A stretch of DNA of 49,107 nt from a virus (taxonomy: Duplodnaviria; Heunggongvirae; Uroviricota; Caudoviricetes), in IMG/VR virus record IMGVR_UViG_2563366861_000002, one strand, 5' to 3'. Positions within the stretch are counted from its first letter, which is position 1. Each line of letters opens with the position of its first letter. The translations under genes and the position numbers were made by a program. The notes beneath the pieces are model-generated. The model was not told the DNA's origin. It searched no databases and saw only the letters and a program-made list of their open reading frames with translations. Of this stretch, positions 4,417 to 48,496 are shown in pieces.

Positions 4417-4873
4417 TGTTTTTGGTTTTAACTGTTCCGCGTGCGCTCAGCCGCATTCACCACATCACAAAATTCACTTTAAAAAGGGCGGCAGAGCAGT
4501 CACGGAGTAAAACTGATACCGCCAAACGTCACCAGAAAATTGATAACAGAGGGCGTTGCAGCGGGGTTGTCACTTAAGCGTATGGTCAACCTGACAACCC
4601 GGTGTCCTCAACGGGGGAAGGAATAACCCCGCCATACTTACCGCCGCGCCATTTCGCGGATTGCCACAACCGGAAGCGCACGGTCGACGAAAATTTAACG
4701 ACAGGCTATCTATGAACCAGCTACCTCGCCGTGCGCTTTCGCGTTATGGTCTGACTTTTCAGGGAAATATCCTTTCAGTAAACTGTCAGTGCCGGATGCT
4801 CACCCGTGTCCGGCGCACGCACTCCACCTCACCCGTGGAGAACTCCTTAATCACCAACCCTCAGGAGGGTGAA

Positions 4874-5149
4874 ATGTCGACTGAAAATGATGAAATCATT
4901 AACTCCCTGATACGCCAGATTAATAATTTTGATAAAGCATTGCAACATGCTGCGGCGCGTAGTGATATAACTCTTTTAGCAATTTCATTTCTTGCATCTG
5001 TTATGGATAAAAATGAAGTCGTACGACAGAGTCTTGTTGATTATATCGACTCGCTTCAACCCGGCACTTTCAATCATGAGAGCTTCAATCATGAGAAAGA
5101 GCATGTTAAGTCTGTAATTAATTCTCTTATTTTGAATCAAAAGAATTAA
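4874..5149 (+). CDS. hypothetical protein (AT-rich moron-like gene, opposite to early-left operon)
   Basis: ATG at 4874 preceded by GGAGGG RBS; 91 aa; visibly AT-rich; 3' end overlaps convergent gene 5127-5459 by 23 bp. Confidence 0.5.
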   Translation: MSTENDEIINSLIRQINNFDKALQHAAARSDITLLAISFLASVMDKNEVVRQSLVDYIDSLQPGTFNHESFNHEKEHVKSVINSLILNQKN

Positions 5150-5459
5150 TGCTTTTTGTTGCAAAGTAATTTTCAAGGGGTTCTATTCGAATCCCTTTCT
5201 TTTTCATTAACAAGCCAAACCCCTTATCAATGATGTCCATTAGATCCAGGAAGTATTTTTCATGTAAATCCTGGTTATCAGAGAGCTGCTTCTCTTCGTA
5301 CAGCCCGATAAAGGCTCGGCGTACGTTACCGGATATATTGTCGATGGTTTCTTTTTCTACGGTACTCAGGTCAAGAGTCGCCAGTTGAGAGCGAACCACA
5401 TTCGATGCCATTTCCTGGAATGGGACTGGTAAATCTTTAAATTCCATCGTCAACCTCAT
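5127..5459 (-). CDS. hypothetical protein (early-left operon)
   Basis: 110-aa ORF; start overlaps stop of upstream gene in ATGA arrangement (translational coupling). Confidence 0.5.
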   Translation of the reverse strand: MRLTMEFKDLPVPFQEMASNVVRSQLATLDLSTVEKETIDNISGNVRRAFIGLYEEKQLSDNQDLHEKYFLDLMDIIDKGFGLLMKKKGIRIEPLENYFATKSINSFDSK

Positions 5460-7285: not shown

Positions 7286-8248
7286 ATGAGCAGCAAGCTT
7301 CATGGTCTTGTCTGGGAAGGGTGCGCCTTCACCGGCATGATCTTATCCAGGGTGGCGGTTATGGCCCGTCTTGCAGACTACAGCAATGACGAGGGCGTGT
7401 CATGGCCTGCCATTGAAACTATCCGGCGTCAGATCGGTGCAAGAAGTGAATCCACAGTGAAATCGGCTATTGCAGAACTGGCGAAAGAGGGCTGGCTGAC
7501 GAAGGAAGAGCGTAAGGTCGGTGGGCGTAATGTAAGCAATATCTATCGGCTTAATGTGGAAAAACTCGAAGCAGCTGCGGCGGCGGCGCGTGAGTCATAT
7601 AAACCGAAAAGAAAAATTAGCCCGGCAAAAAATGACCCGTTAACAGTTGACCCGTCAAATATTGACCCCTCAACGGTTGACCCGTCAAATTTTGATGGAT
7701 CAACTGTTGATAAAAAACTGCCGATTAGGGGGGCGATGATTGACCCCGATCCGTCAGTATTAAAACCTGATCCGTCAGATAAAAGATCTTCTTGTCCGGA
7801 CGCTTCGCAACCGGACCCGCAGACGGCTGAACAGGATTTTTTAACCCGACACCCTGACGCGGTTGTGTTCAGTGCGAAAAAACGCCAGTGGGGAAGTCAG
7901 GAAGATTTGGTGTGCGCACAGTGGATCTGGGGACGAATCGTGAGTCTTTACGAGCAGGCGGCCAGCGATGATGGCGAGATCACTAGACCGAAAGAACCCA
8001 ACTGGACAGCATGGGCCAATGACGTTCGCACAATGCGGATGCTGGATGGCAGAACTCACAGACAAATTTGTGAAATGTTTGGGCGTCTCCAGCGGGATTC
8101 GTTCTGGGTAAAAAACATCATGAGTCCGGCAAAACTCCGGGAAAAATGGGATGAACTGGTTATCCGCCTGGGGCGTTCGCCTGCGCAGCGTTGCGTGAAT
8201 CACATTTCTGAACCGGACACTGAAATTCCGCCGGGCTTCAGGGGGTAA
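7286..8248 (+). CDS. replication initiation protein (lambda O-like / YdaU-like, winged-helix N-terminus)
   Basis: ~320-aa ORF; N-terminal winged-helix-like region; contains tandem iterons within its coding sequence like lambda O. Confidence 0.75.
   Translation: MSSKLHGLVWEGCAFTGMILSRVAVMARLADYSNDEGVSWPAIETIRRQIGARSESTVKSAIAELAKEGWLTKEERKVGGRNVSNIYRLNVEKLEAAAAAARESYKPKRKISPAKNDPLTVDPSNIDPSTVDPSNFDGSTVDKKLPIRGAMIDPDPSVLKPDPSDKRSSCPDASQPDPQTAEQDFLTRHPDAVVFSAKKRQWGSQEDLVCAQWIWGRIVSLYEQAASDDGEITRPKEPNWTAWANDVRTMRMLDGRTHRQICEMFGRLQRDSFWVKNIMSPAKLREKWDELVIRLGRSPAQRCVNHISEPDTEIPPGFRG
7632..7706. repeat. iteron array (candidate replication origin) inside the O-like gene
   Basis: Five ~15-bp direct repeats: ATGACCCGTTAACAG, TTGACCCGTCAAATA, TTGACCCCTCAACGG, TTGACCCGTCAAATT, TTGATGGATCAACTG, followed by A-rich TTGATAAAAAACTG. 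Confidence 0.55.
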
Positions 8249-8288: not shown

Positions 8289-8711
8289 GTGGCAAAAGTT
8301 TTTACACAAGAAGAGCGGGAAAAAATTAAAGGGCAGGTTGTTGAACTCGTACGCCAGAGTGGGCGCGAGACGTTACGACAACTGGAAACTAAAACTGGGG
8401 CAACAAGATATCTGATGAGCGTTCTGGCCAGAGAGCTGGTTGCCAGTGGCGATGTATACAACTCTGGTTACGGGTTATTCCCGTCTGAACAGGCGCGTAA
8501 GGACTGGCAAAATGCCCGTAAAAAGCTCTCAAGGGCAAAGCTGAAGAAACCATCTGCGGTTGATCCGGACCTTATCTGGTCATTACCTGACGGAGAAATA
8601 CGTCGCTACGACAGGCGTCAGAACATAATCTGTCGCGAGTGCCGGAAGAGCGAAGTTATGCAGCGCATATTGTCGTTTTATCAGGGTAATTTTCAGAAGG
8701 TGCTGTTGTGA
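8289..8711 (+). CDS. hypothetical protein (replication-module position)
   Basis: 140-aa ORF, GTG start preceded by AGGAGGG RBS; occupies position of lambda P / Rac ydaV but no AAA+ motif seen. Confidence 0.55.
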   Translation: MAKVFTQEEREKIKGQVVELVRQSGRETLRQLETKTGATRYLMSVLARELVASGDVYNSGYGLFPSEQARKDWQNARKKLSRAKLKKPSAVDPDLIWSLPDGEIRRYDRRQNIICRECRKSEVMQRILSFYQGNFQKVLL

Positions 8712-8816
8712 GCCAAATTAACAATCGGAACTTCGTGAAGAGAAAGCATAATCCAAATCTGAATAATTAAGTTCAGCACTGTAAATAAAATTTAATCCTT
8801 AACTGGAGGTATATCT

Positions 8817-9029
8817 ATGTCAAATACACAGAAAATTATTAACACTGAAAAATATAACGAGTGGGTGAAAAAATTCTCTGAACAGATTTTTAAAATTACT
8901 GGCGACGAGAATGTGGCAAAAAATGAATTAGAACCGTGGACACCTGAAGGAAACGCACCAAATTATTGCTGGTGGGAAGTTGATCCGGTTGATGCTGCAA
9001 ATGAAGCCATGAGTTACCACAACGATTAA
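8817..9029 (+). CDS. hypothetical protein (nin-like region)
   Basis: 70-aa ORF with strong RBS (CTGGAGG) 7 nt upstream. Confidence 0.6.
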   Translation: MSNTQKIINTEKYNEWVKKFSEQIFKITGDENVAKNELEPWTPEGNAPNYCWWEVDPVDAANEAMSYHND

Positions 9030-9061
9030 TGTCGGGAGGCCGCCCGAAAGGGCGGTAAGAA

Positions 9062-9280
9062 ATGACTACATTATTCAGAAAAGAATATCCGCAAAAAAGT
9101 AGAGCGACAGAATTTTTGTTTCTCATTCTGTTTATCGTATTGATGATACCGATATCCCCTCTAATTTTTGTCTGGGCAATCGGGAAAATAATTGAGCCAG
9201 TTACTGAATTGTATACCGACGTTGTATGGGCGTCGTTCAACACACTGCACAATAAAATTAATCCGTATAAGGAAAACTGA
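9062..9280 (+). CDS. hypothetical small membrane protein
   Basis: 72-aa ORF with hydrophobic segment FLFLILFIVLMIPISPLIFVWAIG; stop adjoins next start. Confidence 0.4.
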   Translation: MTTLFRKEYPQKSRATEFLFLILFIVLMIPISPLIFVWAIGKIIEPVTELYTDVVWASFNTLHNKINPYKEN

Positions 9281-9281
9281 T

Positions 9282-9545
9282 ATGGCAACTTTGACAAAAA
9301 AAGAACGGGCATGGTTGAACGAATTACAGGAAGTTCTTGATCGCTGTCCATCACCGAAAAAAATTGGCTTTTACACCATTGGCGATAAAAGCATTTACCT
9401 GTATGACCTACGCCGCATGGATGAAATCATGGAGGCTCTTGATAATCGTTCGTCGATGGATTGGTGTGTTGCTGTTCATGATATGAATGCAGGGTTTGAT
9501 GAAAAGATTTTGTTCCCCTCATCAGTTGAAAGCACTGCGGGTTAA
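9282..9545 (+). CDS. hypothetical protein
   Basis: Internal ATG (MATLTKKERAWLNEL...) of the 117-aa ORF; 87 aa. Confidence 0.55.
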   Translation: MATLTKKERAWLNELQEVLDRCPSPKKIGFYTIGDKSIYLYDLRRMDEIMEALDNRSSMDWCVAVHDMNAGFDEKILFPSSVESTAG

Positions 9546-17114: not shown

Positions 17115-17308
17115 GATTATTGTCTGGCCGGCGGGAAGTTTGTTAAAAAATTTCGCATGGTGAATCCCCCTGTGCGGAGGGGTAATCAGCGAGTAGGTAT
17201 ATGGGATAATCGCGGATTCAGGTGCTGGTACTGAATTCACCGGGAGGCACCCGGCACCATGCAATGGCACATAGCGCCACTCTCCAGCCCCTCTCCGGAG
17301 GGGCTGTT
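17115..17308 (+). ncRNA. candidate structured small RNA / small transcription unit, copy B
   Basis: Same architecture as copy A; internal hairpin differs by compensatory changes (CCCCTCAGCGGCGGGG vs CCCCCTGTGCGGAGGGG). Confidence 0.35.
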
Positions 17309-17340
17309 TATATTGATTTTGTCAGATGTGAGTAAACTCC

Positions 17341-17676
17341 TTATGGACTTTGTTGTTTTAGCCCATAAGGACATATTTGCAGAGTGCAACGGTTATTAAA
17401 GCATTCATTCAATACGTTATCTGTATTTGTAGGGCATTCCTGGCTGTTTTTGATTAAATTCCAGAATGTTTTATTGAATGGTACTACGTTGTAAATGGTT
17501 ACAGGTAGCACTTTGTTATTGAGCATGATGCCTGTGTGAGTCAGTGTAAATATACTTTCAGGAGGTAAGAAAGCATCCGATTGATACCAGATTATTAATT
17601 TTATTTTACTCCATATGACTGAAAAAGATATTCCGCATGATGGCTGGATAACTGTATCAATCACAATCCACTTCAT
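17341..17676 (-). CDS. hypothetical protein (very AT-rich ORF)
   Basis: 111-aa ORF in AT-rich segment upstream of esterase gene; no homology recognised; may be spurious. Confidence 0.25.
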
Positions 17677-17936
17677 TTAGTTTCCTTGTTTATGCCTTGC
17701 TGGTGATGTTCTGAAAAGTATAAATGATATTTTTGATTGTAAACCATAGAGCAGAATTATTTTTCTGATGTTGTTTATTGTTTATTTAAATGCAGGGTGG
17801 TTTATATCTCGTCTTGTAGTTTATCCATGCATATCTGCTTGATGATGAGGTTTTTATTTAAGGTATGGTTTTGTGTTTTTTCTGTATTACATGTCAGGTA
17901 TTTTAAAGAATCATTTTTCAGATGGTGGAAAGAACC

Positions 17937-19793
17937 ATGGCATTTAAACACTATGATGTTGTCAGGGCGGCGTCGCCGTCAGATCTTGCGGAAAAGCTGA
18001 CACATAAACTGAAAGAGGGCTGGCAGCCGTTTGGTAGTCCGGTGGCCATAACCCCTTATACCCTGATGCAGGCGATTGCAGCAGAAGGTGATGTGGTCGT
18101 CAGTGGTGCAACTGAGCCGGAGTGGTACTACGTCATCGTACTGGCCGGGCAATCCAATGCCATGGCTTACGGTGAAGGGCTTCCGCTTCCGGATTCATAC
18201 GATGCGCCCCATCCGCGCATTAAGCAACTGGCCCGTCGTAACACAGTGACTCCCGGTGGTGAAGTATGCGTATTTAACGACATCATTCCTGCTGACCATT
18301 GTCTGCATGATGTTCAGGATATGAGTACGATTAATCATCCCCGGGCTGACCTGAGCAAAGGGCAGTACGGCTGTGTCGGACAGGGCTTACATATTGCCAA
18401 AAAACTGCTTCCGTATATCCCTAATAACGCGGGGATCCTGCTGGTACCATGCTGTCGTGGTGGTTCGGCATTCACCCAGGGCACGGAGGGGACATTCAGC
18501 GAGTCCACGGGGGCCAGTCAGGATTCGGCTCGCTGGGGAGTGGGTAAGCCGTTATATCAGGATCTGCTTTTCCGCACGAAGGCAGCATTGCAGAAAAATC
18601 CGAAAAACGTTTTGCTGGCGATATGCTGGATGCAGGGGGAATTCGATATGACGAATGCCAGTTACGCCCAGCAGCCAGCAGCATTTCTTGCAATGGTACA
18701 GCAGTTCCGTGCTGACCTTGCCGGGCTGGCGGCGCAGTGTCACGGTGGAAGTCCGGCATCAGTCCCCTGGATTTGTGGCGACACGACATACGCGTGGAAA
18801 CAAGAACACGGTACGCAATATGAAGTGGTATATGGTGCATATAAAGGTAAAGAATCCCAGCAGATTTATTTTGTTCCCTTTATGACCGATGGTAGCGGAG
18901 TTAATACACCGACAAACAACCCGTCAGAAGATCCTGATATTGCCGGGTCTGGTTATTACGGTTCGGCATCCCGAACGAACAAAAACTGGGTATCATCAAA
19001 TCGCCCGACGCATTTCAGCTCATGGGCGCGTCGTGGCATTATTCCCGATCGTATGGCAACTGCTATTCTGAACGTAGCCGGTCGCACCTTAGCCTTCATT
19101 AGTGGTAAGGCACCGGAAATCAAACCCTCGCCCGGCGGCGACACTCCATCGGGGCCGTCTGATGGTGACACATCCGTTCGTACAGTCTCCCTGCTGCCGA
19201 CAGCCGGAGAGGCTGCTGCGCAGGGCTGGACCATCACCGGCGGCAGTGTTGCGCTGGAAGATGGTGTGTTTAAGGTTACCAAGCAGAGCAATAAAACTTG
19301 GTCCCTGATGCATCCGGTGGATGACGCAGTCTCCCTGCTGACACGGGGTGGCAGACTGAGCTGTAAGTTTCGACTGTCAGGCGCACTGACCAACAACCAG
19401 TTCGGTCTGGGAATTTATCTGTATACCGATGTAGCGTTACCTGACGTCGTGGCGATGACCGGGACTGGTAACCCGTTCCTGATGTCGTTCTTCACCCAGA
19501 CCACAGACGGCAAACTGAATCTGATGCATCACAGGAAAGCAGGAAACACAAAGTTGGGCGAGTTCGGGAATTACAGTAACGACTGGCAGACGCTGGAGCT
19601 GGTGTTCACCGCCGGCAGTGCCACGGTTACTCCGAAACTGAATGGAGTGGCTGGCCCGGCATTCCAGGTCATAAAAGACAGTCTGACACTGGGGCTGAAT
19701 GCGCTGACGCTGACGGATATTACCAAAAATGCAGCGTATGGCGTTGAGATAGAAAGTCTGGTGCTGGAGATAAATGCACCAGCATCATCATAA
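17937..19793 (+). CDS. sialate O-acetylesterase-like protein (prophage NanS-p-type, SGNH/SASA fold)
   Basis: ~618 aa; GQSN motif (VLAGQSNAMAYGEG) of SGNH-type esterases; occupies the Q-tRNA-[stx]-esterase-lysis position known from Stx and related lambdoid prophages. Confidence 0.8.
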   Translation: MAFKHYDVVRAASPSDLAEKLTHKLKEGWQPFGSPVAITPYTLMQAIAAEGDVVVSGATEPEWYYVIVLAGQSNAMAYGEGLPLPDSYDAPHPRIKQLARRNTVTPGGEVCVFNDIIPADHCLHDVQDMSTINHPRADLSKGQYGCVGQGLHIAKKLLPYIPNNAGILLVPCCRGGSAFTQGTEGTFSESTGASQDSARWGVGKPLYQDLLFRTKAALQKNPKNVLLAICWMQGEFDMTNASYAQQPAAFLAMVQQFRADLAGLAAQCHGGSPASVPWICGDTTYAWKQEHGTQYEVVYGAYKGKESQQIYFVPFMTDGSGVNTPTNNPSEDPDIAGSGYYGSASRTNKNWVSSNRPTHFSSWARRGIIPDRMATAILNVAGRTLAFISGKAPEIKPSPGGDTPSGPSDGDTSVRTVSLLPTAGEAAAQGWTITGGSVALEDGVFKVTKQSNKTWSLMHPVDDAVSLLTRGGRLSCKFRLSGALTNNQFGLGIYLYTDVALPDVVAMTGTGNPFLMSFFTQTTDGKLNLMHHRKAGNTKLGEFGNYSNDWQTLELVFTAGSATVTPKLNGVAGPAFQVIKDSLTLGLNALTLTDITKNAAYGVEIESLVLEINAPASS

Positions 19794-20533: not shown

Positions 20534-21067
20534 ATGAGCGCAAAAATCAAATACGGCCTGTCAGCTGCTGTTCTGGCGCTGATTGCTGCAGGCGCGTCTG
20601 CTCCTCAAATACTTGACCAGTTTCTGGATGAAAAAGAGGGTAACCACACTACGGCATACCGCGATGGTTCCGGTATATGGACCATCTGTCGTGGTGCCAC
20701 AATGGTGGATGGTAAGCCCGTCATACCGGGAATGAAGCTGTCGAAGGAAAAATGCGACCAGGTTAACGCTATTGAACGTGATAAGGCGCTGGCATGGGTG
20801 GAGCGCAATATTAAAGTACCACTGACCGAACCACAGAAAGCGGGTATAGCGTCATTCTGTCCCTATAACATTGGCCCCGGTAAGTGTTTCCCGTCGACGT
20901 TTTATAAGCGGCTGAATGCCGGTGATCGTAAGGGCGCATGCGAGGCGATTCGCTGGTGGATAAAAGATGGTGGGCGCGATTGCCGCATACGTTCAAATAA
21001 CTGCTATGGACAGGTTATTCGTCGTGACCAGGAAAGCGCATTAGCCTGTTGGGGGATAGATCAGTGA
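20534..21067 (+). CDS. R: SAR-endolysin (lysozyme, phage 21 R21-like)
   Basis: 177 aa; N-terminal signal-anchor-release segment ([16 protein letters not shown]), T4-lysozyme-like core with E/D/T catalytic region ([20 protein letters not shown]). Confidence 0.9.
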
Positions 21068-21522
21068 GCAGAGTCGCAGCGATTATTTATACTCTGGTTA
21101 TCTGCACCATCGTCTGCCTGTCATGGGCTGTTAATCATTACCGCGATAACGCCATTACCTACAAAGCCCAGCGCGACAAAAATGCCAGAGAACTGAAGCT
21201 GGCGAACGTGGTAATTACTGACATGCAGATGCGTCAGCGTGATGTAGCAGATCTCGACGCCAGATACACAAAGGAGCTTGCTGATGCTAACGCGACTATC
21301 GAAAGTCTTCGTGCTGATGTTTCTGCTGGGCGTAAGCGCCTGCAAGTCGCCGCCACCTGTGCAAAGTCAACGACCGGAGCCAGCAGCATGGGCGATGGAG
21401 AAAGCCCAAGACTTACAGCAGATGCTGAACTCAATTATTACCGTCTCCGAAGTGGAATCGACAAGATAACCGCTCAGGTCAACTACCTGCAGGAGTACAT
21501 CAGGACGCAGTGCTTAAAATAA
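21064..21522 (+). CDS. Rz: i-spanin Rz
   Basis: N-terminal TM helix then coiled-coil-rich periplasmic domain; overlaps endolysin stop; contains embedded +1-frame Rz1. Confidence 0.75.
21278..21469 (+). CDS. Rz1: o-spanin Rz1 (lipoprotein embedded in Rz)
   Basis: Signal peptide with lipobox (LLGVSAC), Pro-rich mature part ([16 protein letters not shown]), fully within Rz in another frame. Confidence 0.65.
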
Positions 21523-21938: not shown

Positions 21939-22559
21939 ATGAAAGATCAAGATGTTAGGTTCGCGGTGCATCATAAGCTTTTGAAAGAATCGCATTTAGA
22001 TCCAGACTGCCTTGTGGTCGATGAATTTTCCATATCCCTTGGCGCCAGTAGAGCAGACATTGCTGTAATAAATGGTGTTATACACGGGTACGAGCTCAAA
22101 AGTGAATATGACTCTTTGGAGCGTTTGCCTCTTCAAATCAAGCATTATTCTTCTGTAATGGACAAGGTTACTCTTGTCGTAGCTGAGAAACACCTTGAGG
22201 GAGCATTAAAGTTAATCCCAGGTTGGTGGGGCGTTAAAACGGTTTCTGTTGGGCCAAAAGGCGCCATTCTTATAAAGCACATGCGTGGAGAAAAGCTTAA
22301 TCGAAACCATGACACATTGATGCTCGCTCAATTGCTTTGGAAAGATGAATGTATCGACGTACTTGAACGATGGGGCTATTCCAAAGGAATCAAAAGCAAG
22401 CCCCGATTTGAGTTATGGAATATTATTGCGGAAAATATTCCAATAGCGAATCTCAGGCCTGAAGTCAGAACAGCCTTAAAGAAACGCGTAGGCTGGAAAG
22501 TTAAGGCTTGGCAGGCTGAGTCTGCGCCAACCAATAAAGCTGTCTCACGACTAACGTAA
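21939..22559 (+). CDS. predicted PD-(D/E)xK-fold nuclease-like protein (uncharacterised accessory gene)
   Basis: 206-aa ORF, AT-rich; own -10 TATAAT (21905-21910) and AAGGAG RBS; motif VVDEF...RADIAVINGVIHGYELK fits D...D...ExK nuclease core. Confidence 0.7.
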   Translation: MKDQDVRFAVHHKLLKESHLDPDCLVVDEFSISLGASRADIAVINGVIHGYELKSEYDSLERLPLQIKHYSSVMDKVTLVVAEKHLEGALKLIPGWWGVKTVSVGPKGAILIKHMRGEKLNRNHDTLMLAQLLWKDECIDVLERWGYSKGIKSKPRFELWNIIAENIPIANLRPEVRTALKKRVGWKVKAWQAESAPTNKAVSRLT

Positions 22560-23568
22560 TATGGTGCGTATGTGCAACTTTACGCCATTCTTTAGAGCCG
22601 CCAGATTTGTTAGCGCCTAATGATCTTTGGTAAATGTAATCATCCCCCCAACTAAATTTGGAGCCAAAGACTTGATACTCTGGCGAACTAACAAGGGTAG
22701 TACATAAGTTTTTAGTTTGGCCCCATCCATTTCCTTTAACTGCGGTACCTTTTACAAAGATCCATGAGGTATCGTTCGAATATCTCACTGAGACATACTG
22801 AGACATGAAGCGTGGGTCTACGCTCGTAATGGTAGAGCTAGCGGTGGGATAATCACTAAAACTTGGCGTTCTTCCATTGCTAAAATTCTGTACTACGTAC
22901 ATCCAAAGATCGTATTCATGGCGCGGAATATGATGAACTTGATGTTGCGGTATCCCTGCCTGTGATGCCGGGTATGCGGTTGAAGATAAAATCAAGTTTC
23001 TCCACGGAGCTTGGCCTGATAATGTGTTGACCATGCTTAATGCTTGTTGTTTTAAACTATCAGTTGCGTTTTGAATATCTCCAAAATCAATGATTACATC
23101 AATTAAACTAGGATGAATATTTAAGTGGTTAACCAGACTTGTGAATTGGTGCCATGTCTGGGGGGTGATAGACATAGCGAGCCCATTGATTAAGTTGCGT
23201 TGAACAGCATGTATATAGTTTGTTGAATATGCGGGAGAAACAACAGGGATAATTTCCTTACCATTTACTCTAGCATCTTGGATACACATATCTAGAGGAT
23301 GATGGCGGCTCGAACCATGTTTATCTAAATATTTAACATCCAGCAAAACAGGACGATTGGCTTTCCAGGATGCCGCAAGGTTAATACCGAAGTCAGATAA
23401 GTAAGAACTCAAACTCTTCTTGTAGCATTCGTTTTCATAATCCCAGTCTATGTCTGGAATGGTAATGATCGGAGTAAAACCAGAGAGCGTAGTTTGATCT
23501 AAAAGCATCAGAGATTCATATTCAGCAGGCTTCCATTTCAGCTGTGGATAATATTGATGTTGACTCAT
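22501..23568 (-). CDS. uncharacterised 355-aa protein, convergent partner of the nuclease-like gene
   Basis: AT-rich ORF with AAGGAG RBS and promoter-like upstream region; 3' end overlaps 21939-22559 by 59 bp on opposite strand; no catalytic motif recognised by eye. Confidence 0.7.
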   Translation of the reverse strand: MSQHQYYPQLKWKPAEYESLMLLDQTTLSGFTPIITIPDIDWDYENECYKKSLSSYLSDFGINLAASWKANRPVLLDVKYLDKHGSSRHHPLDMCIQDARVNGKEIIPVVSPAYSTNYIHAVQRNLINGLAMSITPQTWHQFTSLVNHLNIHPSLIDVIIDFGDIQNATDSLKQQALSMVNTLSGQAPWRNLILSSTAYPASQAGIPQHQVHHIPRHEYDLWMYVVQNFSNGRTPSFSDYPTASSTITSVDPRFMSQYVSVRYSNDTSWIFVKGTAVKGNGWGQTKNLCTTLVSSPEYQVFGSKFSWGDDYIYQRSLGANKSGGSKEWRKVAHTHHITLVVRQLYWLAQTQPAKP

Positions 23569-23739
23569 TAAAACTCCTTAAAATCTTTACTTATCCTAAG
23601 TATAGTGTTATGGCGTAACGCCAATTGTTTTTATACACTTGAAAACATTGGGAAAAGTTGAGCTATATCTAAATTTACAAAATTGGATGTTATAGAAATC
23701 GAGGTTTCAACTAGGCATGGAACTGCAAAATTTTTAATG

Positions 23740-23972
23740 CCTGCACGCGAAAGTCGTTGGCGGGTCCTTTCCGGTGATCCAGATCGTTACGGGGCGGCGA
23801 CCTCGCGGGTTTTCGCTATTTATGAAAATTTTTAGGGAAAAATCAGATCCGTTCTTCTTCTTTTTAACTGATTGATTATCAATAGAATTTTAAAAATATA
23901 AAAGGATCTGACAAAGGCTGTTTTTGTTAGAAAACGCCATTTTCAGATCCTTTCTGGTTCCCGGGGGAGTGT
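23740..23972 (+). other. cos site (cosQ-cosN-cosB) for lambda-type DNA packaging
   Basis: GGGCGGCGACCT (23792-23803) is identical to lambda cohesive end; flanks (GTCGTTGGCGGGTCCTTTCCGGTGATCC ... CGCGGGTTTTCGCTATTTATGAAAATTTT) match lambda; directly upstream of Nu1. Confidence 0.8.
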
Positions 23973-38155: not shown

Positions 38156-38899
38156 ATGACAGAGACAGAATCAGCGATTCTGGCGCACGCCCGGCGATGT
38201 GCGCCAGCGGAGTCGTGCGGCTTCGTGGTAAGCACGCCGGAGGGGGAAAGATATTTCCCCTGCGTGAATATCTCCGGTGAGCCGGAGGCGTATTTCCGGA
38301 TGGCTCCGGAGGACTGGCTGCAGGCAGAGATGCAGGGTGAGATTGTGGCGCTGGTCCACAGCCACCCCGGTGGTCTGCCCTGGCTGAGTGAGGCTGACAG
38401 GCGGCTGCAGGTGCAGAGCGATTTGCCGTGGTGGCTGGTCTGCCGGGGGGCGATTCACAAGTTCCGCTGTGTGCCGCATCTCACCGGGCGGCGCTTTGAG
38501 TACGGGGTGACGGACTGTTACACACTGTTCCGGGATGCTTACCATCTGGCGGGGATTGAGATGCCGGATTTTCATCGCGGGGATGACTGGTGGCGTCACG
38601 GTCAGAATCTCTATCTTGACAATATGGAGGCTACTGGTTTTTACCGTGTCGCACTGACAGAGGCGCAGCCGGGCGATGTGCTGCTGTGCTGTTTTGGTTC
38701 ATCGGTGCCGAATCACGCCGCCATTTACTGCGGCGACGGTGAGCTGCTGCACCATATTCCTGAACAACTGAGTAAACGAGAGAGGTATACCGACAAATGG
38801 CAGCGACGCACACACTCCCTCTGGCGTCACCGGGAATGGCACGCATCTGCCTTTACGGGGATTTGCAACGATTTGGCCGCCGCATCGACCTTCGTGTGA
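38156..38899 (+). CDS. K: tail assembly protein K (JAB/MPN + NlpC/P60-like)
   Basis: ATG at 38156; HSHPGG (JAMM-like) and cysteine-peptidase-like C-terminus as in lambda gpK. Confidence 0.85.
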   Translation: MTETESAILAHARRCAPAESCGFVVSTPEGERYFPCVNISGEPEAYFRMAPEDWLQAEMQGEIVALVHSHPGGLPWLSEADRRLQVQSDLPWWLVCRGAIHKFRCVPHLTGRRFEYGVTDCYTLFRDAYHLAGIEMPDFHRGDDWWRHGQNLYLDNMEATGFYRVALTEAQPGDVLLCCFGSSVPNHAAIYCGDGELLHHIPEQLSKRERYTDKWQRRTHSLWRHREWHASAFTGICNDLAAASTFV

Positions 38900-39438
38900 A
38901 AACGGGGGCTGAAGCCATCCGGGCACTGGCCACACAGCTCCCGGCGTTTCGTCAGAAACAGAGCGATGGCTGGTATCAGGTACGGATTGCCGGGCGGGAT
39001 GCAGGAGAAACCGAATTATCATCCCGTCTTAATGAGCCGCTGGCAAATGGTGCCGTGATCCACATCGTGCCGCGTCTTGCGGGAGCAAAAAGTGGCGGTG
39101 TGTTTCAGGCGGTGCTGGGTGCGGCGTTGATTGCTACGGCAATCTGGATGCCGGGGATCAGTATCGCTTTCAGTGACATTCTCTTTTCAATGGGTGCGGC
39201 GATGACGCTTGGTGGTGTGGCGCAGATGCTGGCACCGAAAGCCAGAACTCCCCGTACACAGACAACGGATAACGGCAAACAGAACACCTATTTCTCCTCA
39301 CTGGATAACATGGTTGCCCAGGGCAATGTCCTGCCTGTTCTGTACGGTGAAATGCGCGTGGGGTCACGTGTGGCATCTCAGGAGATCAGCACGGCAGATG
39401 AAGGGGATGGTGGTCAGGTTGTGGTAATTGGGCGGTAA
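38797..39438 (+). CDS. I: tail assembly protein I
   Basis: 213 aa; MAATHTLPLASPGMARICLYGDLQRFGRRIDL matches lambda gpI. Confidence 0.85.
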   Translation: MAATHTLPLASPGMARICLYGDLQRFGRRIDLRVKTGAEAIRALATQLPAFRQKQSDGWYQVRIAGRDAGETELSSRLNEPLANGAVIHIVPRLAGAKSGGVFQAVLGAALIATAIWMPGISIAFSDILFSMGAAMTLGGVAQMLAPKARTPRTQTTDNGKQNTYFSSLDNMVAQGNVLPVLYGEMRVGSRVASQEISTADEGDGGQVVVIGR

Positions 39439-39498
39439 TATTATTTACTCATGTTCTAACTGATTTAATATTTATATCGAACACTGATAATTATTCTA

Positions 39499-39849
39499 TT
39501 GGTTAGCTATATGAACAAAACGATTTTATTCTGCACGATTATTGCCTTAACAGGATGTAAATCTTTGGATTACGTAAAATCCGGAAAACCTGTAATGGAA
39601 GGTAATTCATTAAAAAATATTGATGAATTGTCAGGCTGCATATCCAGACAATGGGCTGGTAATGGAACACCTATAACATCCCTTCCTATTGAGAATGGGG
39701 TAAGCCTTTTAGTTCCACAGGCTATGGGGGGATATGATGTTGTGCTTGATATCAAAAAAGCAGGAAATGGCAGTAGTTTTACTCTTTATGAACGTGTACC
39801 AGCATTAACGCCAAAAATTTTTGCTGATAGTGTTAATGCATGTAAATAA
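39499..39849 (+). CDS. putative lipoprotein (AT-rich moron between I and J)
   Basis: Signal peptide with lipobox (IIALTGC); visibly AT-rich; followed by terminator; not part of the lambda tail module. Confidence 0.6.
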   Translation: MVSYMNKTILFCTIIALTGCKSLDYVKSGKPVMEGNSLKNIDELSGCISRQWAGNGTPITSLPIENGVSLLVPQAMGGYDVVLDIKKAGNGSSFTLYERVPALTPKIFADSVNACK

Positions 39850-39873
39850 TAGTTAATCCTGCCGTAACTCATG

Positions 39874-39903
39874 AGCCGCCTTTTGGGCGGCTTTGTTGTT
39901 TAT
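39874..39903 (+). terminator. rho-independent terminator after lipoprotein moron
   Basis: AGCCGCC-ttttg-GGCGGCT followed by TTGTTGTTT. Confidence 0.6.
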
Positions 39904-39915
39904 GGAGTGTGAGGA

Positions 39916-42900
39916 ATGGGTAAAGGAAGCAGTAAGGGGCATACCCCGCGCGAAGCGAGGGACAACCTGAAGTCCACGCAGCTGCTGAGTGTGCTCGATG
40001 CCATCAGCGAAGGGCCGGTTGAAGGTCCGGTGGACGGATTAAAAAGCGTGCTGCTGAACAGTACGCCGGTGCTGGACAGTGAGGGGAATACCAATATATC
40101 CGGTGTCACGGTGGTGTTCCGGGCAGGTGAGCAGGAGCAGACACCGCCGGAGGGATTTGAATCCTCCGGCTCCGAGACGGTGCTGGGTACGGAAGTGAAA
40201 TATGACACGCCGATCACCCGGACCATCACGTCGGCAAACATCGACCGTCTGCGCTTTACCTTCGGTGTGCAGGCACTGGTGGAAACCACCTCAAAGGGGG
40301 ACAGGAATCCGTCGGAAGTCCGCCTGCTGGTTCAGATCCAGCGTAACGGTGGCTGGGTGACGGAAAAAGACATCACCATTAAGGGCAAAACCACCTCGCA
40401 GTATCTGGCCTCGGTGGTGGTGGATAACCTGCCGCCGCGCCCGTTTAATATCCGGATGCGCAGAATGACGCCGGACAGCACCACAGACCAGCTGCAGAAC
40501 AAAACGCTCTGGTCGTCATACACCGAAATCATCGATGTGAAACAGTGCTACCCGAACACGGCACTGGTCGGCGTGCAGGTGGACTCGGAACAGTTCGGCA
40601 GCCAGCAGGTGAGCCGTAATTATCATCTTCGCGGGCGTATTCTGCAGGTGCCGTCGAACTATAACCCGCAGACGCGGCAATACAGCGGTATCTGGGACGG
40701 AACGTTTAAACCGGCATACAGCAACAACATGGCCTGGTGTCTGTGGGATATGCTGACCCATCCACGCTACGGCATGGGGAAACGTCTTGGTGCGGCGGAT
40801 GTGGACAAATGGGCGCTGTATGTCATCGGCCAGTACTGCGACCAGTCAGTGCCGGATGGCTTTGGCGGCACGGAGCCGCGCATTACCTGTAATGCGTACC
40901 TGACCACACAGCGCAAGGCGTGGGATGTGCTCAGTGATTTCTGCTCGGCGATGCGCTGTATGCCGGTATGGAACGGGCAGACGCTGACGTTCGTGCAGGA
41001 CCGACCATCAGATAAGGTGTGGACCTATAACCGCAGTAATGTGGTGATGCCGGATGATGGCGCGCCGTTCCGCTACAGCTTCAGCGCCCTGAAGGACCGC
41101 CATAATGCCGTTGAGGTGAACTGGATTGACCCGAACAACGGCTGGGAGACGGCGACAGAGCTTGTGGAGGATACGCAGGCCATTGCCCGTTACGGTCGTC
41201 ACGTCACGAAGATGGATGCCTTTGGCTGTACCAACCGGGGGCAGGCGCACCGTGCCGGGCTGTGGCTGATTAAAACGGAACTGCTGGAAACGCAGACCGT
41301 GGACTTCAGCGTGGGTGCAGAAGGGCTTCGCCATGTACCGGGCGATGTCATTGAAATCTGTGATGATGACTATGCCGGTATCAGCACCGGCGGGCGCGTG
41401 CTGGCGGTGAACAGCCAGACCCGGACGCTGACGCTCGACCGTGAAATCACGCTGCCATCCTCCGGTACCACGCTGATAAGCCTGGTTGACGGAAGTGGTA
41501 ATCCGGTCAGCGTGGAGGTTCAGTCCGTCACCGACGGACTTAAGGTGAAAGTAAACCGGGTTCCTGACGGCGTTGCAGAATACAGTGTGTGGGGGCTGAA
41601 GTTGCCGACGTTGCGTCAGCGCCTGTTCCGCTGTGTGAGTATCCGTGAGAACGATGACGGCACGTATGCCATCACTGCCGTGCAGCATGTACCGGAAAAA
41701 GAGGCCATCGTGGATAACGGGGCGCACTTTGACGGCGACCAGAGCGGCACGGTGAATGGTGTCACGCCGCCAGCGGTGCAGCACCTGACCGCAGAAGTCA
41801 CCGCAGACAGCGGGGAATATCAGGTGCTGGCGCGCTGGGACACGCCGAAGGTGGTGAAGGGCGTGAGCTTCCTGCTTCGCCTGACCGTGGCAGCGGACGA
41901 TGGCAGTGAGCGGCTGGTCAGCACGGCCAGGACGACGGAAACTACATACCGCTTCACGCAACTGGCGCTGGGAAATTACAGGCTGACAGTCCGGGCAGTA
42001 AATGCGTGGGGACAGCAGGGCGATCCGGCATCGGTATCGTTCCGGATTGCCGCACCGGCAGCACCGTCGCGGATTGAGCTGACGCCGGGCTATTTTCAGA
42101 TAACCGCCACGCCGCATCTTGCTGTTTATGACCCGACGGTACAGTTTGAGTTCTGGTTCTCGGAAAAGCGGATTACCGATATCAGGCAGGTTGAAACCAC
42201 AGCCCGCTATCTTGGTACGGCGCTGTACTGGATAGCCGCCAGTATCAATATCAAACCGGGCCATGATTATTATTTTTACGTTCGCAGTGTGAACACCGTT
42301 GGCAAATCGGCATTCGTGGAGGCTGTCGGTCGGGCGAGCGATGATGCGGAAGGTTACCTGGATTTTTTCAAAGGAGAAATCGGGAAAACACATCTGGCCC
42401 AGGAGTTGTGGACGCAGATTGATAACGGTCAGCTTGCGCCGGACCTGGCTGAAATCAGGACGTCCATTACGAATGTCAGCAATGAAATCACGCAGACCGT
42501 CAATAAAAAACTGGAAGACCAGAGTGCGGCAATCCAGCAGATACAGAAAGTTCAGGTTGATACAAATAATAACCTGAACAGCATGTGGGCCGTGAAACTG
42601 CAGCAGATGAAGGACGGACGCCTTTATATTGCGGGTATCGGAGCCGGTATTGAGAATACGCCAGCAGGTATGCAGAGTCAGGTGCTTCTGGCTGCTGACC
42701 GGATTGCGATGATTAATCCTGCGAATGGCAACACAAAGCCGATGTTTGTTGGTCAGGGCGATCAGATATTCATGAACGACGTGTTCCTGAAACGCCTGAC
42801 GGCTCCGACCATTACCAGCGGCGGTAATCCTCCGGCATTTTCCCTGACACCGGACGGGCGGCTGACGGCGAAAAATGCCGATATCAGCGGTAACGTGAAT

Positions 42901-43395
42901 GCGAACTCCGGGACGCTCAACAACGTCACGATTAACGAGAACTGTCGGGTTCTGGGAAAATTGTCCGCCAACCAGATTGAAGGCGATCTCGTTAAAACAG
43001 TGGGCAAAGCTTTCCCCCGGGACTCCCGTGCACCGGAACGGTGGCCATCAGGGACCATCACCGTCAGGGTTTATGACGATCAGCCGTTTGACCGGCAGAT
43101 TGTTATTCCGGCGGTGGCATTCAGCGGCGCTAAACATGAGCGGGAGAATAACGATATTTATTCGTCATGCCGCCTGATAGTACGGAAAAACGGTGCTGAA
43201 ATTTATAACCGTACCGCGCTGGATAATACGCTGATTTACAGTGGTGTTATTGATATGCCAGCTGGTCGCGGCCACATGACGCTGGAGTTTTCGGTGTCAG
43301 CATGGCTGGTGAATAACTGGTATCCCACAGCAAGTATCAGCGATTTGCTGGTTGTGGTGATGAAGAAAGCCACCGCAGGCATCAGTATCAGCTGA
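39916..43395 (+). CDS. J: central tail fiber / host specificity protein J
   Basis: 1159 aa; size, position and fibronectin-III-like middle region as lambda gpJ. Confidence 0.9.
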
Positions 43396-47827: not shown

Positions 47828-48496
47828 CTATTTTTTCCCTGAAGCGGAAAACATTACTACAGTACCTTGAACCTTGGTTTTAACATTCTCGAAATGCTCT
47901 GAGAGTATATGTGTTAAGCCTTCTTCGGAATCTTTTGTGTTTGAAAAGATGCCTTTCTGATTGTAAATGCGCATCAGTTTTTGACCGAAGCTATTGTGCA
48001 CAACTCCATCGCCAAGAATTGTGGCTCCGTATAGAGTTCCATCGTCAGTTAAGGCCTGCGCCGCATTGCGTATTACACAGCTTTTTGTAGATATATTTCC
48101 AGGCAGGCAGTGAAGAAGGTAAAACATGGAAATGGAATCAAATTGACCATGTAACGCCGCGGGATAAGGTTCAAAAACATCATGGCTAATTTTATGTTTA
48201 ATTTTTGATTCCCCAGCCCTTGTAGATGCCGCGTTCAGGCTAGCTTCGTTCAAATCCATTAAAGATATCAGACTACTCTCAGGTACGTGAGTAAGGTAAA
48301 ACCCAGTTCCAACACCAATATCCAGATGGTTGTTACCTACATGTTCCAGAAAGTGTGGAAGAAGGTGTTCCTTTGTAGGACATCCCCATGCAAGCCGATT
48401 TGATACTCCCAAAACCCACCAGTCATAAAGCTTTAGGGTAAGTGGTGTGTAAATTTTAGCCCCATCATCTGTGTTTTTTTTCATTGATTTCACCAT
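47828..48496 (-). CDS. class I SAM-dependent methyltransferase (moron in tail-fiber region)
   Basis: 222-aa ORF with motif I LDIGVGTGFY; AT-rich; opposite strand to tail genes; flanked by duplicated tfa 3' ends. Confidence 0.7.
   Translation of the reverse strand: MVKSMKKNTDDGAKIYTPLTLKLYDWWVLGVSNRLAWGCPTKEHLLPHFLEHVGNNHLDIGVGTGFYLTHVPESSLISLMDLNEASLNAASTRAGESKIKHKISHDVFEPYPAALHGQFDSISMFYLLHCLPGNISTKSCVIRNAAQALTDDGTLYGATILGDGVVHNSFGQKLMRIYNQKGIFSNTKDSEEGLTHILSEHFENVKTKVQGTVVMFSASGKK

Follow-up and report, generated by a model that had tools for sequence, protein, structure and literature searches.

The first moron to be described was gene 15 of phage HK97, the product of which is an inner-membrane superinfection-exclusion protein (PMC3594210). 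The criteria by which such genes are recognized (Juhala et al. 2000, summarised in PMC3594210) are extra DNA with respect to collinear relatives, a deviating GC content, an own terminator, and an own promoter that is active in the repressed prophage. Several small phage lipoproteins encoded within or beside tail and host-specificity genes, namely Cor and the mEpimmI proteins Lpp021 and Lpp010, exclude phages that depend on FhuA, OmpA or LamB (PMC11893012, PMC3594210). Superinfection exclusion by Cor, which is found in phi80, N15, HK022 and T1-like phages, has been reviewed (PMC3594210), and experiments have demonstrated that unrelated lipoproteins from phage structural clusters exclude OmpA- or LamB-dependent phages, with Lpp010 acting against LamB-dependent phages including lambda (PMC11893012). 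Phage T5 encodes Llp, an outer-membrane lipoprotein, beside its receptor-binding protein gene; Llp inactivates FhuA from the periplasmic side (PMC9586334).

Here we analyze a stretch of 49,107 nucleotides (IMG/VR record IMGVR_UViG_2563366861_000002), referred to throughout as the window. It is a lambdoid prophage with an integrase at its left end and terminase, head and tail genes in the order of lambda. A preliminary description had drawn attention to a putative lipoprotein gene between tail genes I and J, which we compare with the systems above.

Genomic context of the insert

The features of the I-J region are as follows, with lom and side tail fibre genes lying beyond J.

38797..39438, + strand: gpI tail-tip assembly protein, the upstream neighbour (Pfam Lambda_tail_I, E 4.4e-24; collinear with I of lambda-like phages)
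39440..39862, + strand: inserted AT-rich block of ~423 bp (junction alignment with lambda, Ayreon, PhiR49_2 and PhiR47_2; low GC)
39440..39510, + strand: AT-rich leader of 71 bp, 5' of the start codon
39511..39849, + strand: prolipoprotein CDS, 112 aa (ORF list, phrog_914 match, AlphaFold2 model)
39511..39558, + strand: predicted signal peptide (aa 1-15) and lipobox L13-T14-G15-C16 (direct sequence reading)
39873..39903, + strand: GC-rich hairpin with T-rich tail, terminator-like, resident in the I-J junction
39916..43395, + strand: gpJ central tail fibre / host-specificity protein, the downstream neighbour

Homology to Ayreon, PhiR49_2, PhiR47_2 and lambda ends directly after the gpI stop codon, which marks the left edge of the insertion, and restarts about 10 bases 5' of the GC-rich hairpin. 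Where these insert-less phages have a spacer of ~10 bases, the window has ~423 extra bases without counterpart in any of the four, and the junction is otherwise collinear. Base composition also sets the block apart from its neighbours: the lipoprotein gene has a GC content of 0.36 versus 0.58 in its 1-kb flanks, the insert as a whole ranges from 0.34 to 0.40, and the gene is the sole island below 40% GC across the structural region at 24.4-47.8 kb. The earlier placement of an AT-rich gene between I and J in a lambda-collinear tail module is thus borne out by the GC values and the four-phage alignment. Both the extra DNA and the deviating GC content are those of a moron, and support the view of the gene as an AT-rich, foreign-looking, moron-like add-on to the tail operon.

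The terminator-like element consists of a 9-bp hairpin (39873-39893) with six G-C pairs and a T-rich tail that runs to 39903. The preliminary description had assigned it to the lipoprotein gene as the gene's own terminator. The hairpin and T-run exist, but a homologous hairpin occupies the I-J gap of lambda, Ayreon and the PhiR phages, all of which lack the insert, and therefore the terminator belongs to the junction and not to the lipoprotein gene; in Ayreon it carries a terminator annotation. The lambda hairpin reads AAACCGCCTGCGGGCGGTTTTGTCATTTATGGAG (locus L096, 165-197) and the window copy GAGCCGCCTTTTGGGCGGCTT, and the stems differ by a compensatory change on both sides that keeps the pair. 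The I-J hairpin is ancestral; the cargo came to lie 5' of a terminator already resident there. An Rfam scan of the region returned only GcvB, at 19 bits versus a gathering score of 42; this sub-threshold match was taken as chance.

A perfect 10-bp inverted repeat, TATTATTTAC / GTAAATAATA, is located at both edges of the insert (39439-39448 / 39842-39851), and an 8-bp direct repeat, TTGGGCGG, has one copy at the end of gpI (39428-39435) and the other in the 3' arm of the hairpin (39883-39890). These edge repeats could be chance occurrences in AT-rich DNA or footprints of recombination. Outside the structural region the window contains further AT-rich islands (GC 0.31-0.38) at 17301-18050, 23201-23950, 8551-9400 and 4851-5400. 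One of these is overlapped by a 355-aa minus-strand ORF (22501-23568; phrog_9159, function unknown) that lies between lysis and terminase genes and may be another cargo gene. A 222-aa minus-strand ORF (47828-48496; phrog_2132, function unknown) is found 3' of the tail fibre assembly gene. Its counterpart in E. coli 214-4, in a prophage that abuts potB, is annotated as a class I SAM-dependent methyltransferase.

Lipoprotein signal and predicted localization

The ORF encodes a product of 112 aa with the N-terminus MNKTILFCTIIALTGC (longer N-terminal reading, MNKTILFCTIIALTGCKSLD). It was read against a PROSITE PS51257-type rule, comprising K or R within the first 7 residues, an uncharged h-region, a Cys at positions 15-35, and the lipobox pattern [LIVMFWSTAG](2)-[LIVMFYSTAGCQ]-[AGS]-C. 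By direct reading, Lys3 belongs to the n-region, residues 6-11 carry no charge, and A12-L13-T14-G15 is followed by Cys16, encoded at 39556-39558; the earlier prediction of a ~112-aa lipoprotein with the lipobox LTGC holds. The mature protein, from Cys16, comprises 97 aa. In enterobacteria, the residue at position +2, following the lipobox Cys, governs membrane sorting. That residue is Lys17 and not Asp, so that Lol sorting to the outer membrane is predicted, where the lipoprotein is probably located.

A scan of the whole window by the same rule identified only two lipobox ORFs, the one at 39511-39849 and an Rz1-like ORF, and no cor or bor homologue was seen in the window. The Rz1-like o-spanin lipoprotein ORF (21284-21469) is nested in an Rz-like ORF (21049-21522).

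Predicted fold

In an AlphaFold2 model built from 12 sequences (mean pLDDT 83.7, pTM 0.76), the signal peptide is followed by a short helix, a strand, a helix at residues 37-50, four strands, and a C-terminal helix at residues 103-111. The mature domain is predicted to adopt a compact beta-alpha-beta4-alpha fold. C43 is positioned on the long helix and C111 on the C-terminal one, and a periplasmic Cys43-Cys111 disulfide probably joins the two.

A Foldseek search of the PDB ranked Flpp3 first (E 5e-3, TM 0.52). The similarity to this DUF3568 lipoprotein of Francisella (PDB 6pny, 2mu4, 9nlt) is weak and at the level of fold, with an identity of 6-9%, and the DUF3568 Pfam model gave no match to the window protein even at E 10. 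Sequence searches of the PDB, whether by the single protein or by the family profile, returned noise or signal-peptide matches only. The one significant match in a viral structure library was a protein of Pseudomonas phage phiAH14a, itself a family member. As modelled, the fold is a generic helix-grip/TBP-like alpha+beta arrangement, and its likeness to Flpp3 carries no mechanism.

The phrog_914 family and its conservation

The window protein matches phrog_914, labelled in PHROG as of unknown function, with residues 1-112 aligned to profile positions 1-118 of 118 (E 7.3e-33). The protein has no Pfam match at E up to 10 and no match in NCBIfam or PADLOC, and a VirB7 match (E 0.08) that covered the signal peptide alone was rejected. 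Pfam searches with 52 family members yielded no meaningful match (E up to 0.01), and literature searches found nothing on WP_001332187 or phrog_914. An exhaustive profile search recovered 125 representative clusters at 50% identity, almost all of 105-125 aa, in which distant members come mostly from short metagenome contigs. A scan of genome contigs found a single Kluyvera locus, and a tblastn search of the phage collection with the distant member P0041 was negative. Two long proteins, P0091 (1047 aa) and P0115 (782 aa), match the family profile in 5-6 stretches each, pointing to either tandem domain arrays or spurious repeat matches.

The lipobox Cys, C43 and C111 are invariant in an alignment of 52 diverse members, and P27, K35, W48 and G63 nearly so. 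The lipobox pattern is present in 109 of 116 family representatives, and in none of the 116 does Asp follow the Cys. Where dS could be computed against ~50% identical homologues, dN/dS is 0.08-0.31, with dS near saturation. Of 61 close copies in loci from IMG/VR and E. coli, 57 remain intact and differ from one another mostly at synonymous sites; three are frameshifted and one is truncated. The broken copies could be read as those of a non-functional or decaying passenger ORF, to which the frameshifted database variants P0002 and P0018 would add. We regard this as very improbable, given the intact majority, the low dN/dS, the motifs that stay invariant in distant members, and the confident fold prediction; the ORF is a real gene under purifying selection. 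Frameshifted or 5'-truncated copies occur in prophage loci L063, L064, L065 and L074, and the presence of broken copies in some prophages implies that the gene is dispensable for prophage maintenance.

At an identity of at least 95%, the 477-bp block is found in 336 of 5426 complete E. coli genomes (~6%), nearly always once and on the chromosome. In one of these genomes the annotation gives a hypothetical protein at this place, flanked by the tail assembly protein and gpJ, and human isolates account for many of the best E. coli matches. A megablast search with the block gave no match in 50,697 phage records; its known occurrences are confined to prophages and metagenomes.

Slots occupied by family members

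Homologues from Enterobacteriaceae are 48-59% identical to the window protein and lie in lambda-type tail modules at several junctions. The slots of the family are as follows.

Between I and J: E. coli prophages, the window included
Between K and I: Klebsiella and Kluyvera prophages; metagenomic viral contigs; Hendrixvirinae phages Fraca, LMessi and Serratia OS31
Between chaperone T and the tape measure gene: Enterobacter HK97-like prophages
Just 3' of a cI-like repressor gene, on the repressor's strand: a Burkholderia gladioli prophage; Pseudomonas phage phiAH14a
In the replication module of another element: a distant member
In a genomic island without evident phage genes nearby: one distant member

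The enterobacterial branch is restricted to phages with an M-L-K-I-J tail tip, and a hairpin with a T-run stands directly before the next gene after nearly every copy in a tail module. The Enterobacter homologue, 51% identical to the window protein, occupies the exact slot of HK97 gp15. When the two junctions are aligned, the terminators correspond (GACCCGCTATCAAGCGGGTTTTTTTT and GACCCGCTCCGGCGGGTTTTTTT), as do the starts of the tape measure genes, and the cargo genes are unrelated; the terminators lie at 1399-1423 of the HK97 locus L100 and at 8360-8385 of the Enterobacter locus L087. Together with the lambda hairpin that stands without cargo, this suggests that cargo is exchanged upstream of fixed terminators. 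Comparison of these junctions suggests that terminator-marked junctions in the tail operons of lambda and HK97 serve as exchange sites for cargo genes.

In the Enterobacter prophage (L087, ~7975-7995), an inverted repeat, CCTCCttacttctGGAGG, lies 5' of the lipoprotein start and overlaps the strong Shine-Dalgarno sequence of the homologue; by sequestering the ribosome-binding site it might regulate translation. In phiAH14a (L090, 6962-7948), the phrog_914 member is followed by a second gpI, both 3' of the cI-like repressor gene and on the same strand. This second gpI is 79% identical to the gpI of the tail module, and the duplication has been described (PMC4936722). The K-I slot in the tail module of phiAH14a (L092, 24239-25310) holds an unrelated 140-aa lipoprotein. 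The annotated start of phiAH14a p33 is too far downstream, as the ORF extends 5' to include the signal peptide.

These neighbourhoods bear on when the gene is expressed. The window copy lies on the strand of the tail genes with no terminator between gpI and itself. A consensus scan of the 71-bp leader found no sigma-70 promoter on the + strand, the best relaxed match being 8/12 (TTTACT-17-AATATT), and the Shine-Dalgarno sequence is weak (GGT, 7 nt 5' of the ATG). Copies at the K-I junction have very short upstream gaps, 32 bp in Klebsiella, which is too short for a private promoter. An arrangement of this kind would suit a protein made solely from the late tail operon transcript that acts at or after lysis, for example by neutralising receptors on debris, as proposed for T5 Llp, or by modulating envelope disruption. 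Such a role restricted to the lytic cycle is nonetheless improbable in our estimation. That the copies beside cI-like repressors share the repressor's strand points to expression in the lysogen; a hairpin and T-run after almost every copy is how a prophage-expressed moron is classically laid out; and Rz/Rz1 are already in the window to serve lysis.

The same neighbourhoods, with the predicted fold, also bear on a function for the host that has nothing to do with phages, such as serum resistance (compare lambda Bor and TraT), adhesion, or protection against envelope stress. The lambda-type morons Bor and Lom have roles of this kind (PMC3594210), the best fold match is to a protein titled 'F. 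tularensis Virulence Determinant' in PDB 2mu4, human isolates figure among the best E. coli matches, and one distant member resides in the non-phage genomic island. In sequence, however, the protein matches neither Bor nor TraT nor any Pfam family, and the Flpp3 likeness is confined to the fold. The context of the family is overwhelmingly one of phages and prophages, including environmental phages of Pseudomonas, Serratia and Burkholderia. A host-fitness or virulence lipoprotein is in our view an unlikely explanation.

Comparison with known exclusion proteins

Like the window gene, HK97 gene 15 is an extra gene in the tail operon with a deviating GC content and a terminator before the next essential tail gene. 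The two products differ in kind: gp15 is a 62-aa YebO-like inner-membrane protein without a lipobox, located between T and the tape measure gene, whereas the window protein is a 112-aa lipoprotein with predicted outer-membrane localization, encoded between I and J. The hhalign probability of gp15 against the family was 0.1%, with no sequence relationship.

The Cor and Lpp proteins are ~72-82 aa long and encoded 3' of J, with Lpp010 and Lpp021 on the opposite strand, whereas the window protein, at 112 aa, is encoded 5' of J on the same strand. Aligned by hhalign to the family profile, the cor product of Fraca matched over 31 columns covering the signal peptide and few residues beyond it, and tblastn with the window protein found no cor genes. 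Lpp010 of mEp010, the sequence of which was taken from PP180001 gp116, aligned over 17 signal-peptide columns only, and the mEpimmI lipoproteins were rejected as homologues on this ground. T5 Llp (PDB 8a60_B) aligned over residues 1-19 only (E 1.7); it is unlike the window protein in size and predicted fold, and is absent among the top fold matches listed. Homology to Cor- and Llp-like families was not found, as only signal peptides align. Judged by these alignments, the window protein falls outside the Cor, Llp, Lpp010 and HK97 gp15 families and resembles them in kind and genomic position only. Fraca carries a phrog_914 member together with a separate cor gene, which suggests that the two are not redundant.

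Tail fibre types and the receptor question

The preliminary description had further raised the possibility that the lipoprotein blocks the phage's own receptor, as Cor and Llp do: it would mask or distort the outer-membrane protein recognized by the J protein of the same phage, so that this and related phages fail to adsorb. The gene adjoins J, and Cor, Llp and Lpp010/Lpp021 are precedents (PMC11893012, PMC9586334). We typed the last 250 residues of J in 37 loci that combine a complete J with a lipoprotein of at least 98% identity. Four C-terminal types were found, in 26, 6, 3 and 2 loci, that are 56-79% identical to one another, while the N-terminal 700 residues of J are shared by all four types at 97.5-98.5% identity. 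The predominance of one type among carriers is what matching to a receptor would give, and it is likewise consistent with such matching that only ~20 of the 287 records in the phage collection that match the J C-terminus exceed 90% identity, and that none carries the insert.

The strict form of this proposal is not supported by the four types, since a lipoprotein that stays constant while the receptor-binding end of J is swapped argues against strict receptor matching, although recent recombination could give the same picture. The enrichment for one type is explicable by lineage and physical linkage. Relatives also lie far from J, between chaperone and tape measure genes and beside repressors; Fraca has its separate cor; and homology to Cor, Llp and Lpp010 stops at the signal peptide. 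We therefore consider a block of the phage's own receptor to be unlikely, and on present evidence the lipoprotein is not matched to the receptor-binding end of its own phage's J.

The window J C-terminus (42646-43392) is closest to J of some Stx-converting and other E. coli prophages. All four types are at most 64% identical to lambda J, and a lambda-like end implying LamB was rejected for the window, as its last 249 aa share no more than ~58% identity with lambda J by tblastn. Four J ends on near-identical N-termini in related prophages (loci L012, L029 and L035) amount to swapping of receptor-binding domains.

Proposed role

We tentatively favor a phage-exclusion lipoprotein acting at the level of the envelope, with a probability of roughly 0.45. 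A horizontally acquired cassette entered a lambda-like prophage between the gpI stop codon and the I-J hairpin that was already there. Its prolipoprotein would be exported by Sec, lipidated at Cys16 and cleaved by signal peptidase II, and the Lys at +2 would direct Lol carriage to the outer membrane, as read from the N-terminal sequence. There the lipoprotein would bind to a component of phage entry in the outer membrane or periplasm, and binding would protect the lysogen, or the infected cell and progeny phage. Cargo genes of phrog_914 move between moron slots, namely the I-J, K-I and chaperone-tape measure junctions and the position beside a repressor. The exclusion-moron idea of the preliminary description retains its footing in relatives that occupy the slot of a proven exclusion gene, HK97 gp15, and in the precedent of unrelated lipoproteins; it loses homology to Cor and Llp and the matching to the phage's own receptor. 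The slot position lends guilt-by-association support only. Also weighing against exclusion are the negative PADLOC and Pfam searches, a leader in which no convincing sigma-70 promoter was found, the short K-I gaps of some relatives, and the distant member in a genomic island.

A more specific and rather doubtful version of exclusion dispenses with masking of a surface receptor. As a new class of exclusion factor, lipoproteins of phrog_914 might intercept a conserved part of the lambda-type tail tip as it enters the periplasm, acting from the inner face of the outer membrane on candidate targets such as ejected gpI, the C-terminus of the tape measure protein, or the gpK peptidase. Lambda-like siphophages would then be excluded whatever receptor their J uses. 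The uncoupling of the lipoprotein from J type, the restriction to phages with M-L-K-I-J, the frequent abutment to gpI, and the duplicated gpI of phiAH14a fit this version.

Envelope-level exclusion would make phrog_914 a plausible new family of a familiar kind, and not a surprise. If that role is true, a widespread and structurally unrelated family joins the short list of Cor, Llp and Lpp. Such a family would shape which phages infect a given strain, and with it the competition among prophages in the gut, and it would bear on the choice of therapeutic phages against carrier strains of E. coli, Klebsiella and Enterobacter.
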